From a virus (Duplodnaviria; Heunggongvirae; Uroviricota; Caudoviricetes), in the IMG/VR virus record IMGVR_UViG_3300012344_000014, positions 42,581 through 106,580 of that record: a stretch of 64,000 bases of DNA, one strand, 5' to 3'. Position numbers and translations under genes: made by a program. This document shows positions 2,630 to 60,326 of the stretch, piece by piece. The first letter of the stretch is position 1, and every line of letters begins with the position of its first letter. A model generated the notes under the pieces. It was not told the origin of the DNA. It searched no databases and was given only the letters and a program-made list of their open reading frames with translations.

Positions 2630-3811
2630 ATGGATATGGCAGACAAAATTTCTCTCGGCCGCGTTGTGACCGTACCGCGCGGCAAATATGACGCGAGCGC
2701 GGAATACAAAAAATAGGACATTGTGGAATATGAGGGCAACGGTTACATCGTGCTCAAGGACGTGAGCGGCACGGCGCCGACCGGCGCGAACGATGACCCG
2801 AACTATTCGCTTATCAGCCGGCGGGGGGCGACTTATACCCCGTCGGTGGACACAAGCGGGAACCTTACATGGGCAAACAACGCCGAACTGGAGAACCCGA
2901 CGGCGCGCAACATCACGGGGCCGAAGGGCGAACAGGGCGACCCCGGCAAGAACTTTACGATTAAGGGTGTATATGCGACGCTTGCAGCTTTGCAGGCAGG
3001 CGTACCAGCTCCGGCGCAGAGCGACTTCTATGCGGTGGGCACGGCCGGAGCGTATGAAGTTTACATGTGGAACAACAGCGCGTGGCTGAACATGGGATCG
3101 CTTCATGGCCCCGCAGGCCCCGCGTTCATTCCGAGCGTGGATGACGCCGGCAACCTGAGCTGGAGCGCGATTGAAGGCTACACCACGCCGACGACAAAAA
3201 ACATCAAAGGCCCTGCGGGCGACGTATGGAAGCCGACAGTGGCGGCGGATGGCGGAATCAGCTGGACGAAGGACAACACAGCGACTGCGCCGGCGGCTGC
3301 GAACATCAAGGGGCCTCAGGGCATTGCGGGGCCTGCGTTTGTGCCTACGGTGGCGGACGACGGCACGCTGAGCTGGGCACCTATTGACGGTTACACAACA
3401 CCGGCATCGAAAAACATTATGGGGCCGAACAAGATCACGGCGAACACGGCGACCGATTTCCCAAACACATCAGGGACGCAACGTTCCGGCATGCTGCGGG
3501 CGACCGGCGGAAAGGTGACGCTGGCTGTCGCGGGGCTGGATTACGCGGCTCCTCCGACCGTTACATCCATCACCCTGACGGCGGCGGGATGGACAGAGAA
3601 GGCGCAGACCATCAGCACAGGGCTGAGCATGGTGACGGCGAGCAACACAATTATTGTGGAGCCCGCGCCGGCCTCTGTCGCCGTATGGCGGGAGTGCGGA
3701 ATTTATTGTTCTGCACAAGCTGCGGGCAGCCTTACATTCACCTGTGTTGAGGACGCTCCCACGGACGCGGTAACTGTGAACGTCATGGCGATGGACACGA
3801 CGACGGCATAA
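2630..3811 (+). CDS. tail fibre protein 1 (read through in-frame TAG 2714-2716)
   Basis: ATG 2630 after a GGAGGG RBS is in frame with track ORF 2723-3811; only TAG 2714 separates them. Contains a short collagen-like GPKGEQGDPGK stretch. The C-terminal ~70 aa (TLTAAGW...YCSAQAAG.LTF.C) is shared with fibres 2 and 3. Confidence 0.75.
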
Positions 3812-3906
3812 CACGTTGTCTACCGAAACCTGTTTTCGTTCGATAATATACAGAGGGAGGAGTTTTTAATTCCTACCATTTTTTGTAAATCATGGAGGTG
3901 AGAAGC

Positions 3907-4248
3907 ATGTGCGATGATACCTCTGCAATTGAATTTGTGCAGGGCGATTCTGTCGACCGAATTTTTCTGCTGCAGGACGAAGCTGGCGAAGCGGTAGACC
4001 CCACCACAATCGCCGCTGTATATTTTACCTGCCGGGCTGCGAAATTCCAGCAACAGCTTTTTTATGACGAAACCCAGCAGGCATATCTGCTTACGATGAC
4101 ATATGACGATACGCGCGTTATGCCGAAAGGCCGATGGACGTACGACTTGACGGTTGAGTTTGTCGACACAAAACGGCGAACGGCGACGTATAACGGAACT
4201 TTTAATATCTTGCCAAAGATTAATTGTGTTGCTTACGAGGGGGGATAA
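3907..4248 (+). CDS. hypothetical protein
   Basis: GGAGGTG RBS lies 6 nt before ATG 3907, within track ORF 3892-4248. Confidence 0.55.
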   Translation: MCDDTSAIEFVQGDSVDRIFLLQDEAGEAVDPTTIAAVYFTCRAAKFQQQLFYDETQQAYLLTMTYDDTRVMPKGRWTYDLTVEFVDTKRRTATYNGTFNILPKINCVAYEGG

Positions 4249-4250
4249 CT

Positions 4251-4535
4251 ATGGCCGGGTCTACCGACTCTCCGAAGATAACTGTAAGCGTGCGGGAACC
4301 CCCGAAGATCAACGTTGTAATCGGAACCGGCGGGGGCGGCAGTTACACGCTCTTCCCCGCGACCGACAAGACGCTGGGCGGCATCAAAGTGGGCGACGCG
4401 CTTACAATTACGAAAGACGGCGTACTGTCCGTGCTCAGAGCGGACGCCGTGGAAGAAGACAACACGTTGCCCATTACATCCGCGGCGGTGCATACCGAAA
4501 TCGGTAATATTGCCGTTTTGCTATCTACAATATAA
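4251..4535 (+). CDS. hypothetical tail-associated protein
   Basis: GAGGGGGG RBS before ATG 4251, within track ORF 4224-4535. Confidence 0.55.
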   Translation: MAGSTDSPKITVSVREPPKINVVIGTGGGGSYTLFPATDKTLGGIKVGDALTITKDGVLSVLRADAVEEDNTLPITSAAVHTEIGNIAVLLSTI

Positions 4536-4547
4536 GGAGCTGATATT

Positions 4548-5759
4548 ATGCCTCAGACCACAATTGCAACTGAGATTGCGCGTATACAGACAGATAGAAA
4601 TACAATCAGAACAAAATAGGTCGACCTTGGCCTTGCAACTTCGACGGCGACGCTGGACGATTTAGCAGCCGCGATTGAGGGGATCGAAAACAGGGGCGCG
4701 GTCAACGCCAGTGTCACTGAAGGCAACACCTATACCATCCCGAAGGGTTATCACAACGGGAGCGGCACCGTCGCGGGCGTTGCGGGCGGCGGCAACTACA
4801 CGCTGCAGGCGAAGAGCATCACGCCCACAAAGAAGGGACAGAACGTCACTTCCGACGACGGGTATTACGGCCTGTCTGCTGTAACCGTCGCGGCGATCCC
4901 CGAAGCTTATCAGGACGTTTCGAGCACAACTGCTGCGGCCGGGAATGTCTTGGCTGGTAAAGTGTTCGTCACGGCGGCGGGCACAGTCACGACCGGTACG
5001 ATGGTCAATAACGGCGCGGTTGCAAAGACATTGGATGCATCGACGACCAGCTATACCGTTCCTGCCGGATACCACAGCGGCGCTGGAAAAGTGCAGATCG
5101 TGACGGAAACCAAGTCTGTCACGCCTGCGGAATCTGCGCAGGACGTCACGCCGACAACCGGTAAGGTGCTGAGCAAGGTAACCGTCGGCGCAATCCCGGC
5201 CAAGTACGCGGACGCGACCGACGTGAGTGTTACGGCCGATAAGCTGCTCAAGGACGAAACCGCAATCGGCTGGGACGCGGAGGCGGAGGCCCCTGTGGCC
5301 GTGACCGGCACCATGCCGAATAACGGGGCTATCTCAAAGACACTGGACACAACGACAGCCAGTTATACCATTGCGAAGGGCTATCACGACGGTACCGGCG
5401 TGATTAAGCTGGTAACGGAAACCAAGTCCGCTACCCCGACCGAATCCACGCAGACAATTTCCCCGACAGCCGGCAAAGTACTTTCGAGCGTCACTGTGAA
5501 TCGTATTCCGACCAAGTACAAGGACGCGACCGGCATGACCGCCACGGCGGCGGGGATGCTGGCGGATACGACGGCGATCGGCTGGGACGCCGCCAAGTCG
5601 CTCCCTGTTGTGCTGACCGGTACAATGGCAAATAATGGCAGCGTTACTACCACCATCGACGGCCTGACGACCACTTCGGTTTCTATCCCTGCCGGTTACA
5701 CGACTGGCGGAACTGTTTCTCTCACTGATGATATTTATACCGCTCTTGCGGCGATTTAA
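4548..5759 (+). CDS. tail protein with ~90-aa tandem repeats (read through in-frame TAG 4617-4619)
   Basis: AAGGAG RBS then ATG 4548. The frame stays open to 5759 apart from TAG 4617. The repeat NNGA..KTLD....SYT.P.GYH.G.G recurs four times, and the first copy lies upstream of track ORF 4950-5759. Confidence 0.75.
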
Positions 5760-5773
5760 GGCGGTGAAATAAG

Positions 5774-59224: not shown

Positions 59225-59304
59225 CACATTTAAGCAAAAAACTTAAGTGAACGAATGGTAATGGTCTTGAGTAGAGTAGGATATATACTTCGTATATAGC
59301 GGAC

Positions 59305-59610
59305 TTAGTGAATCCGTATCGTCGCCTTTCCTTCGGAGCTCAGCTTATCGGTGAACTCGACTGGGATTACCTGCGCTTTGGAGCTTGAACCTGTCTTGGC
59401 AGATGTCGCGCTGTACGCGTTCCACCAGCGTTCCCGCTCGGACATGAGATAGTTCTCATGCGCGGCTTCCTTATTGCGGCGAAGGGCGCTGCTGATCGCC
59501 TCCTGTTCATGCCGGTGATAGAGATTCGAAATGCGCATGCCAAGGAAGAAGGACGCTGTGACGAGGGCAAGGACGAAAAGGACGCTGAGAATACCGGCTG
59601 TAAGGGTCAT
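59305..59610 (-). CDS. membrane-anchored hypothetical protein
   Basis: N-terminal TM segment LTAGILSVLFVLALVTASFFL. Confidence 0.5.
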   Translation of the reverse strand: MTLTAGILSVLFVLALVTASFFLGMRISNLYHRHEQEAISSALRRNKEAAHENYLMSERERWWNAYSATSAKTGSSSKAQVIPVEFTDKLSSEGKATIRIH

Positions 59611-59629
59611 GGTTTTACGCTCCTTTGCT

Positions 59630-59896
59630 TTACTTGGTTTCGTTTTTCTCTTCGGGTTCCTGCCATTTTTCTTTGTTGTGGTTCATCCAGACACTGAGAG
59701 CTACAAGGATGAGCGCGCCGACCCACATTACCGGCACCGCCCACAGCGGTCCTGTTTCCAGTACTGATACGCCCGGCACACGGGTGGGCAACGTTGCGCC
59801 GCAGCCGGTGAACAAAACCGCGCAGCCGAGCAGCTTTATAGAATCGATAACATCCCTGACCTGTTTTCTTTTCGCTTTGTCGTTGTTATCCTGCAT
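59630..59896 (-). CDS. putative lipoprotein with a C-terminal TM segment
   Basis: AGGAGG RBS 7 nt before ATG 59896. Lipobox-like LFTGC. Confidence 0.5.
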   Translation of the reverse strand: MQDNNDKAKRKQVRDVIDSIKLLGCAVLFTGCGATLPTRVPGVSVLETGPLWAVPVMWVGALILVALSVWMNHNKEKWQEPEEKNETK

Positions 59897-59953
59897 ATGG
59901 ATACCTCCTGTTTTATTTGGCGCGTCCAGCGCCATAAGATCATGAGCGGAACG

Positions 59954-59982
59954 TTGCACACCTGTTCTACGTATGGTATAAT
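59954..59982 (+). promoter_or_regulatory. sigma-A promoter (TTGCAC-N17-TATAAT with a TG extension)
   Basis: TTGCAC at 59954-59, TGGTATAAT at 59974-82. Confidence 0.6.
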
Positions 59983-60044
59983 GCAAATAAGAGCGCTTGC
60001 GTTTCTTTTCCTTTCGCCATTTTGTTTTGGGAGGAGAAAAGAAA

Positions 60045-60326
60045 ATGATAAAGTTGCTCGATAAATATTCCGCGTCGGTTTCACTCGTACTGAGCTAGGC
60101 CGGAGCGCTTGCGCCTTTCCCTGTAAACTTTGCGCTGAATTCAGCTGGGGTTGTCCTCGCGGCACGCGGGGCGATGATTCAGCGCAGCCTGATGGGTTAC
60201 ATCGGGGTAGGGTTGGCGTAGCTCGGGTTTATCCCGGCAGAGTGGCTGGCGATTGGACTAATCATTATTTCCTGGCTGGGATGGTTAGCTTCAATCACGC
60301 CGACAAGGAAGGAATGGGGCGGGTAA
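60045..60326 (+). CDS. multi-TM membrane protein (in-frame TAGs at 60096 and 60219)
   Basis: GGGAGGAG RBS then ATG 60045. The frame is open to TAA 60324 apart from two TAGs, and the sequence is hydrophobic throughout (..GYIGVGLA-TAG-LGFIPAEWLAIGLIIISWLGWL). Confidence 0.5.

Follow-up and report, generated by a model that had tools for sequence, protein, structure and literature searches.

Probable reading of UAG as leucine by the tRNA(CUA) of a widespread SPbeta-like gut phage lineage

The stretch of DNA analyzed here, which we call the window, is 64,000 nucleotides (nt) from a tailed phage (positions 42,581 to 106,580 of IMG/VR record IMGVR_UViG_3300012344_000014). It is part of contig logan:SRR1747039_750 (112,235 bp), where it runs from base 74241 down to base 10242, and it covers the tail, lysis, and replication regions of a ~112-kb SPbeta-like phage from gut-type metagenomes. 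A preliminary description of the window had listed 23 internal, in-frame TAG codons and proposed that TAG is a sense codon throughout the genome. We compared these sites to relatives of the phage (contigs among L001–L026), which were reached via the PAPS reductase, the tape measure, and the capsid protein. The comparisons suggest that a widespread lineage of SPbeta-like gut phages, with genomes of ~110–120 kb, probably reads UAG as leucine by means of its own short-arm tRNA-Leu(CUA), and that this would give a tRNA-dependent on/off gate ~30 codons into late, lysis, and toxin genes.

The positions and strands of all 23 TAGs, and the open frames around them, were borne out by direct reading. Nineteen are on the + strand and four are on the − strand (that is, CTA on the + strand), and every frame is open on both sides of the TAG and ends at TAA or TGA. 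These are the genes or open reading frames (ORFs) that contain them:

2630–3811 (+): tail-fiber-like gene of 393 codons; TAG at 2714 (codon 29)
4548–5759 (+): repeat-containing fiber-like gene of 403 codons; TAG at 4617 (codon 24), identical in L001 and L003
8790–9608 (+): glycine-rich late gene of 272 codons; TAG at 8892 (codon 35), kept in L001
13849–14250 (+): membrane or signal-peptide protein adjoining the endolysin; TAG at 13879 (codon 11 from the ATG at 13849)
15174–15488 (+): small membrane protein after the amidase endolysin (14250–15158); TAG at 15216 (codon 15)
19510–19680 (+): doubtful small ORF; TAG at 19582, with an ATG directly after it
19807–20019 (+): HicA-toxin-like gene 1 (HicA1), 70 codons; TAGs at 19855 (codon 17) and 19969 (codon 55)
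21498–21734 (+): HicA-toxin-like gene 2 (HicA2), 78 codons; TAGs at 21630, 21684, and 21726 (the penultimate codon)
26852–27064 (−): glutaredoxin/NrdH-like gene with a CPxC motif; TAG at 26996–26998 (codon 23)
27119–27667 (−): RuvC-like resolvase, start uncertain (27646 or 27667); TAG at 27452–27454
31067–31444 (−): RemA-like gene of 125 codons; TAG at 31343–31345 (codon 34)
38170–38421 (+): small membrane protein on the strand opposite its neighbors; TAGs at 38272 and 38407
38548–38805 (+): paralogous small membrane protein; TAGs at 38644 (codon 33) and 38722 (codon 59)
41964–42122 (+): small membrane protein, between the genes for PAPS reductase and ligase; TAG at 41985 (codon 8)
42202–43062 (−): PAPS-reductase-family gene of 286 codons; TAG at 42715–42717 (codon 116)
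44037–44378 (+): small ORF among − strand genes; TAG at 44055 (codon 7)
60045–60326 (+): small membrane-protein-like ORF, indicated by its open frame, in a part of the window that no relative spans; TAGs at 60096 and 60219

For gene calling, we trained a codon-usage model on the window and compared four genetic codes. With code 11, there were 75 genes, which ended at TAA (37), TGA (36), or TAG (2). One of these two TAG ends is the internal codon of the PAPS reductase and the other is the stop of a serine recombinase; the other 73 genes end at TAA or TGA. This leaves one true TAG stop among the 75 genes, in agreement with the earlier claim that TAG is nearly absent as a terminator, the recombinase excepted. 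Treating TAG as a sense codon raised the coding density from 84.7% to 86.5% and also raised the summed coding score. Both fell if TGA or TAA was treated as a sense codon instead. The outcome was the same over 83 kb of the window's own contig. The gain in density is small because TAG is rare: in-frame TAGs are 17 of 24,092 codons (0.07%), or ~0.9% as compared to the leucine codons.

Eighteen of the 23 TAGs are supported by homology across the TAG or by conservation in relatives from other samples. In six genes, a single profile alignment crosses the TAG. The preliminary description had held that the two halves of the RuvC, PAPS-reductase, RemA, and HicA genes each belong to one protein, and the Pfam alignments are indeed continuous across each TAG: PAPS_reduct aligns at model positions 3–173 of 175, RuvC at 7–146 of 148 in one piece, the RemA family at 1–73 of 73, and HicA_toxin at 1–58 of 58 in both HicA genes. 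In HicA1 the alignment is in one piece across both TAGs, and in HicA2 it crosses 21630 and 21684, while 21726 lies outside the domain. The sixth gene encodes the small membrane protein after the endolysin, in which PHROG 4105 spans residues 9–102 across the TAG at 15216 (E = 2e-23). The neighboring endolysin (14250–15158) matches the amidase lysis family PHROG 1794.

Ten TAGs (2714, 4617, 8892, 31343, 38272, 38407, 38644, 38722, 41985, and 44055) recur in relatives that were assembled independently. The last seven of these are kept in phages that are 72–86% identical, even though the neighboring bases differ. For instance, the TAG of the RemA-like gene is kept in L010 at 76% DNA identity, those at 38644 and 38722 are conserved in L005–L012, down to 72% DNA identity, and those at 38272 and 38407 are conserved in L005, L007, and L008 despite differing flanks. 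The TAG at 44055 is kept in L005–L011 while its flanks diverge, although the ORF had no match in a PHROG search. ORF 41964–42122 and its TAG are conserved in L005, L006, and L010, and the TAG of the tail-fiber-like gene (2714) is conserved in L001, L003, and L016. Because the same TAGs are found in independent assemblies, assembly error can be ruled out. We also found uninterrupted orthologs of the PAPS reductase and of the capsid gene of relative L016, and together with the conserved TAGs, these exclude gene decay as well. From these comparisons, it is almost certain that TAG is translated in this phage, rather than acting as a stop.

Individual sites vary in how well they are supported. At 4617, read-through is forced: there is no start codon from 4620 to 4950 (110 codons), yet the coding score and the internal repeats continue. 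The glycine-rich gene at 8790–9608 has a positive coding score on both sides of its TAG, and it had no match in Pfam or PHROG profile searches. The NrdH-like gene had also been described as one recognizable protein across its TAG at 26996. Its frame is open and its coding score is positive on both sides, but the homology is weak and not significant. Five sites (13879, 19582, 21726, 60096, and 60219) lack corroboration. At 13879, the support is a signal-like N-terminus (MNKVFCILLT-x-VFMMTV) that is formed only on read-through; the start of this gene is uncertain, with a GTG at 13747 as the alternative. No homology was found for the ORF at 19510–19680. There is also an in-frame TAG at 50149 on the − strand, which was absent from the earlier list. 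It lies 13 codons before the first start of the gene at 49556–50107. L005 and L006 share it ("NFVNR-x-KTF"), and it probably belongs to a 5' leader, rather than marking an unusual start.

To identify the amino acid, we compared orthologs as ORFs in the coding frame, with TAG written as X. At 19 sites that vary within the lineage between TAG and a sense codon, the partner is leucine in 15 cases, glutamine in 3 cases (always CAG), and isoleucine in 1 case. The leucine partners are CTG, CTT, CTC, CTA, and TTG, which is the whole synonymous family and mostly two mutational steps from TAG; this is the pattern to expect if TAG itself is a leucine codon. With a BLOSUM62-derived model, the log10 likelihood of the 19 sites is −12.5 for leucine, −16.0 for methionine (the next best), and below −24 for glutamine.

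Conserved columns in protein families agree. The capsid gene has a TAG at codon 54 in L018 and L019 ("YQIAQ-x-VGFAV"), and this column is leucine in 99 of 109 homologs. The fiber TAG at 2714 is kept in every lineage, and its column ("YKR-L-DVV") is leucine in all six distant homologs whose match reaches the N-terminus. The paralog of the gene at 38548 has leucine opposite the TAG at 38722 (SLLGM versus GLxGM), and a second TAG in the L010 copy of the ORF at 41964 aligns with a TTG leucine codon in L005 and L006. We also replaced the TAGs of HicA1, HicA2, RemA, and RuvC with each of ten residues and rescored the proteins against Pfam. Leucine had the best total (184.7 bits), followed by valine (181.6), isoleucine (180.8), and methionine (180.3), as compared to 170.8 bits for glutamine. 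Leucine was the best residue for HicA1 (57.6 bits versus 51.7 bits for glutamine) and for HicA2. Methionine, isoleucine, and leucine scored highest for RemA, and hydrophobic residues scored highest for RuvC (28.3 bits for valine, 27.6 for leucine, and 24.9 for glutamine). In structures from the Protein Data Bank, HicA chains have valine, leucine, or phenylalanine at the second TAG site of HicA1 (19969), and 7bm2 has isoleucine at the TAG position of RemA.

TAG means leucine in NCBI translation tables 16 and 22 (chlorophycean and Scenedesmus mitochondria). As judged from the comparisons above, the predicted assignment fits the type of codes 16 and 22 and fails code 15. The preliminary description had suggested table 15, in which TAG is glutamine; this part of it did not hold up, as orthologs, family columns, and the tRNA of relatives (described below) all favor leucine. 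Overall, we think it likely that TAG is read mainly as leucine via a phage tRNA.

No tRNA(CUA) had been seen in the window, and we found no tRNA of any kind there. We also found no tRNA in its 10-kb flanks, in the replication and tail regions of relatives, or in the 83 kb of the window's own contig that the scan covered; by analogy to relatives, an array would be expected in the other 28 kb (contig bases 84024–112235). Rfam at the gathering threshold gave nothing in the window or flanks. At this threshold it also missed the CUA tRNA in L023, which the sensitive mode recovered.

Relatives have a tRNA array upstream of the terminase, in the order Ser(GCU), Met, (Gly), Thr, (Leu-UAA), and Ala, with the CUA tRNA last. 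ARAGORN identified tRNA(CUA) at this same locus in six contigs (L018:1301–1377, L019:1956–2032, L023, L024, and L025:1566–1642, and L026:525–601). It is 74 nt plus CCA and matches the Rfam tRNA model over its full length (39.9 bits). Three variants of it show compensatory changes at pairs 27–43, 30–40, and 2–71. Its features are of the leucine type: A73, a 3-bp D stem, an 11-nt D loop (with A14, A15, G18, G19, and A20a), and U48. Features of tRNA-Gln (U1–A72 and G73) are absent. We scanned for the D-arm motif TGGTGNAATNGGCAGACAC in one genome per species for ~186,000 bacterial and archaeal species, and all 109 of the overlapping ARAGORN tRNAs were tRNA-Leu; the other matches were mostly truncated or intron-bearing sequences that resemble tRNA-Leu. 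For leucyl-tRNA synthetase (LeuRS) from E. coli, A73, A15–U48, G18G19, and A20a matter, while the anticodon and the long arm do not (PMC9976931), and one bacterial LeuRS accepts a type I tRNA-Leu as its substrate (PMC6614811). Leucylation of the relatives' tRNA(CUA) is thus plausible from its sequence.

A blastn search with tRNA(CUA) against phage records gave nothing useful, and a scan for promoters and terminators around the tRNA array gave results no higher than the shuffled expectation. ARAGORN labels this tRNA as "Pyl", and we rejected a pyrrolysine system: the label derives from the anticodon alone, the D-arm is of the leucine type, and the TAG columns are leucine or hydrophobic. No pyl genes were found among the Pfam-annotated neighbors.

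The TAGs are not spread evenly across the genes. Fourteen of the 23 are in ~630 codons of small + strand genes that lie amid the − strand replication genes: the two HicA-toxin homologs, with 2 and 3 TAGs, and five small ORFs that resemble membrane proteins. Another five are in late + strand genes (three fiber-like or glycine-rich genes and two that flank the amidase endolysin), and just four are in ~12,700 codons of − strand genes. Per codon, the small + strand cassettes thus have ~70 times as many TAGs as the replication genes of the − strand.

Across the lineage, 17 of 43 unique TAG sites are at codons 23–37, versus 5.2 expected (p ~ 5e-6, for an interval that was chosen post hoc). In genes of at least 190 codons, 9 of 16 sites are in this same post hoc interval, versus 0.7 expected. 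The sites in this interval, from at least 12 genes, include:

Window: 2714, 4617, 8892, 26996, 31343, 38272, and 38644
Relatives: L014:1360, L014:3545, and L019:4933

In pipeline gene calls for the relatives, stubs of 32–33 amino acids precede the tail tube, terminase, RemA, and head genes; the TAG of the tail tube is at codon 33. A chain of ~30 codons is about what fills the ribosome exit tunnel, and this is also the proposed translational "ramp" region.

TAG still stands at the end of some genes:

15905–17605 (−): large serine recombinase; ends at TAG (15920–15922), with a TGA five codons on (15905–15907)
65517–65867, 69252–69572, and 71918–72094 (window numbering): early genes that end in TAG, beyond the window on the same contig (L004)

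The end of the serine recombinase, with its second stop five codons after the TAG, is as the preliminary description had it. The protein has Resolvase, Recombinase, and Zn_ribbon_recom domains and no internal TAG, and its end (TAG, then NVSL, then TGA) is conserved in L006. For two of the early genes, the extensions on read-through (36 and 142 codons) have negative coding scores. In the third, read-through would fuse the gene to the next ORF, and the extension scores positively. As a terminator, then, TAG is used by 1 of 75 genes in the window and by 2–3 more among the 23 genes just outside. The claim that TAG is a sense codon throughout the genome needs to be narrowed: read-through is supported in at least 15 genes of the window, but TAG is sparse and clustered, and it still seems to be the stop for the recombinase and two early genes.

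We also considered the bases around the TAG. The base before an in-frame TAG is C in none of 66 contexts and A in 47% of them. As a decoding signal, we rejected this avoidance of C because it is largely a general avoidance of CTAG: in the window, CTAG is rare (17 versus 36 expected) and ATAG is common (203 versus 162 expected). A preference for a purine just after the TAG (+4) was not significant.

We propose the following mechanism. The tRNA(CUA) of the phage lineage would be expressed from the small array that lies on the strand of the late genes, immediately upstream of the genes for the terminase and the head. Host LeuRS, which does not read the anticodon, would charge it with leucine, and UAG would then be read as leucine in competition with release factor 1 (RF1). 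TAG would be kept as a rare leucine codon (~1% of leucine codons) at chosen places: at codons 23–37 of many late genes for structure and packaging, in the genes on either side of the endolysin, and in small HicA-toxin and membrane genes of opposite orientation, with 2–3 copies per gene. Full-length product would be made only if the phage tRNA is present, so that TAG would gate translation. There is no internal TAG in the genes that have to function without the tRNA (both recombinases and the earliest genes), and these may still stop at it. With the TAG early in a gene, failed read-through would be cheap. The gating role is a tentative suggestion from the distribution of TAG, and we infer both the timing of tRNA expression and that the window's own contig encodes the tRNA.

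Several observations weigh against parts of this interpretation. First, tRNA(CUA) was found in relatives only. L023–L026 carry the capsid protein of the L014 lineage, and that lineage's tape measure is 90% identical to the window's, but the other relatives with the array share ~77–80% DNA identity with the structural region of L014 or L016. Second, tRNA(CUA) has a 5-nt variable loop and lacks the long class II arm of bacterial tRNA-Leu. (The bacterial matches to the D-arm motif were 80–90 nt in 108 of 109 cases, and one was 77 nt.) Charging by the host's LeuRS is therefore not assured. No dedicated synthetase was seen, as in the code-15 gut phages, but genes for synthetases and release factors were not systematically searched for. 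Third, decoding does not seem to be uniform, as TAG apparently still terminates the recombinase and two early genes. Fourth, the interval of codons 23–37 was picked after seeing the data. Finally, three sites (PAPS 42715, L016 capsid column 147, and L016:26883) pair with CAG (glutamine) in the nearest relatives. The columns for the PAPS reductase and capsid 147 are polar and lack leucine among 109–120 homologs; at the PAPS TAG, the column contains K, E, D, V, or Q, with no leucine in 120 homologs. PAPS reductase orthologs without the TAG have CAG (glutamine) at 91% and 83% identity and GTT (valine) at 75% identity. Even with the two polar columns included, leucine is still ahead of glutamine by 11 bits. 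We read the three sites as probable recent C-to-T transitions, in which a change from glutamine to leucine was tolerated on protein surfaces.

Regarding the short variable loop, L019 also has a tRNA-Leu(UAA) of 76 nt close to the array's CUA tRNA (L019:1728–1803). It is a near-paralog of tRNA(CUA), with a nearly identical D-arm, and it also lacks the long arm. Class I tRNAs of the leucine type thus form a small family in this lineage. The 77-nt bacterial tRNA, a tRNA-Leu(GAG) found in L038, is short-armed as well.

Among the alternatives, ambiguous or stage-dependent decoding survives best. The tRNA(CUA) might carry mainly leucine and partly glutamine and compete with RF1, so that UAG is a stop early in infection and leucine, or sometimes glutamine, later on. 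Such mischarging of amber suppressors by glutaminyl-tRNA synthetase, via U35, is a known effect. The mixed partners (15 leucine and 3 glutamine), the TAG ends of two early genes and the recombinase with negatively scoring extensions, and the rarity of TAG and its position early in genes, where failed read-through is cheap, would all fit. However, all three glutamine cases are one C-to-T transition from CAG, and recent changes from glutamine to leucine at tolerant surfaces explain them equally well. We consider ambiguous decoding to be unlikely.

Much the same evidence bears on code 15, in which a glutamine-type suppressor would read TAG as glutamine, as in crAss-like phages, Lak phages, and phAss-1. 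The described differences in code between phages and their hosts are all TAG to glutamine or TGA to tryptophan (bioRxiv 10.1101/2021.08.26.457843; PMC10607447), and the three pairings with CAG are as code 15 would predict. But the 15 pairings with leucine, mostly with CTN codons two steps from TAG, are not. The leucine columns in the capsid (99/109) and the fiber (6/6) would require glutamine in a hydrophobic core, and in the Pfam scans, glutamine scored below every hydrophobic residue and 13.9 bits under leucine overall. Given as well the leucine-type D-arm and A73 of tRNA(CUA), code 15 seems very unlikely.

We judge it highly improbable that the host itself reads TAG as leucine or supplies the suppressor. 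This would account for the lack of a tRNA in the 83 kb of the window's own contig. But relatives encode tRNA(CUA) at a fixed locus, TAG still ends some early phage genes, and a screen of >250,000 genomes is reported to have found no bacterial reassignment of TAG (PMC8629427).

That the TAGs are real stops, in split or decaying genes, after leader ORFs, or from sequencing or assembly errors, is scarcely conceivable: possible starts lie 1–3 codons after some of them (GTG at 2723, ATG at 13888, and ATG at 19585) and give code-11 gene models, but the same TAGs are found in independent assemblies from different samples, domain alignments cross them, no start follows 4617 for 110 codons, essential genes of relatives (major capsid, terminase, and tail tube) carry in-frame TAGs, and a matching tRNA(CUA) exists in relatives.

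Reading UAG as leucine with a phage tRNA would have several parallels. As in the code-15 gut phages (crAss-like, Lak, Garnet/Topaz, and phAss-1), in-frame TAGs are found in conserved genes, a tRNA(CUA) is phage-borne (here, in relatives), the recombinase or integrase lacks an internal TAG, and use of TAG is concentrated in late, lysis, or toxic genes. A switch role for late expression has been proposed for recoded phages (bioRxiv 10.1101/2021.08.26.457843; PMC10607447; PMC9523058), and the distribution of TAG fits that model. Unlike in the code-15 phages, the residue would be leucine instead of glutamine, the suppressor would be a derivative of tRNA-Leu, the backbone is SPbeta-like, and TAGs cluster at codons 23–37. 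The density of TAG is also far lower here (17 of 24,092 codons, versus 28% of ORFs affected in phAss-1).

The organellar codes 16 and 22 have the same assignment, and table 16 would translate this phage correctly. In organelles the reassignment applies throughout, whereas here it would be a viral overlay on a standard-code host, with TAG being rare. No evolutionary link between the two is known.

Laboratory suppressors that insert leucine at amber codons, such as the CUA tRNA-Leu derived from E. coli supP/leuX, are mutants of a class II host tRNA. They are similar in that the anticodon is disregarded by LeuRS (PMC9976931), which allows a tRNA-Leu body with CUA to function. The tRNA of the phage lineage differs in being natural, phage-encoded, and class I, with its 5-nt variable loop. 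In Streptomyces, TTA is read by a single, developmentally timed tRNA-Leu(UAA), bldA. This is the same logic as we propose, with a very rare leucine codon in a selected set of late genes, and the type I tRNA-Leu of S. coelicolor is charged by its own LeuRS (PMC6614811). Unlike in our proposal, TTA is a normal sense codon, failure to read it leads to stalling rather than termination, and the system is chromosomal instead of phage-borne.

Like the SPbeta-like phages of Bacillota, this phage has a large serine recombinase, a polymerase of the DNA polymerase III alpha type, and a genome of ~110–120 kb. Relatives carry the SPbeta virion families PF27364 (YonB, capsid), PF27173 (YomU_Tube), and PF27197 (YomX_C). 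SPbeta differs in using the standard code. A Megablast search of the INPHARED phages with 50 kb of the window gave no match, and scans with the tape measure across IMG/VR, GTDB genomes, and JGI metagenomes gave no relatives and no host or prophage context.

If correct, this would be the first TAG-to-leucine code outside of organelles and the first reassignment of a stop codon in phages to a residue other than glutamine, tryptophan, or glycine. A full-text literature search, which left out most subscription journals, gave no phage or bacterial case of TAG to leucine. The restriction to glutamine for TAG and tryptophan for TGA has been explained by properties of the glutamine and tryptophan synthetases (bioRxiv 10.1101/2021.08.26.457843). 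A phage with TAG as leucine would show a second route to recoding, via a synthetase that is blind to the anticodon. Gene callers that are limited to codes 4, 11, and 15 would mistranslate such phages. Examples are Prodigal-gv and MgCod. With its capsid protein in the index of 37 blocks of the contig collection, the lineage is a common one, so these phages are probably mis-annotated widely. A natural class I amber suppressor for leucine may also be of use for genetic-code engineering, and a lytic switch is an idea that can be tested directly, given the clustering near codon 30 and the density of TAG in the HicA and membrane genes.

The window and its relatives have some other features of interest. 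The gene that resembles DNA polymerase III alpha (32578–37494, − strand, 1638 codons) contains an in-frame intein at 34672–36075 (residues ~474–941), with matches to Intein_splicing (Pfam, 6.5e-11), LAGLIDADG_3, and Hint; GC content falls to 45.6% there. The polymerase of L010 has 1058 residues and lacks the insert.

In L006, which is from another sample, base 40654 of the window is joined to base 17513 (at L006:11171–11173), and the 23-kb segment between them is absent. The result is an ORF of 932 residues in which codons 1–402 of the ligase continue, without a shift of frame, into the serine recombinase at about its codon 8. The microhomology at the junction is 3 bases (ACC). The junction could be a deletion or excision product made by the recombinase, or it could be a chimeric assembly.

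The ligase belongs to a conserved trio on the − strand: a WGR and PARP protein (38881–40083), a Macro-like protein (40080–40535), and an ATP-dependent DNA ligase (40551 to ~41861). The trio is also found in L005–L012, and a phage would not usually have such a module for ADP-ribosylation and repair. NrdD, an anaerobic ribonucleotide reductase (24534–26855, − strand; Pfam, 6e-85), is encoded directly downstream of the NrdH-like gene and implies an anaerobic host. Finally, in L014 (16538–18954) and L015 (8207–10623), there is an insert between the tape measure and the distal tail genes, with PBECR4, a HigB-like toxin, and an HTH/Peptidase_U49 protein. The window's contig lacks this insert, so the site is a slot for variable cargo.

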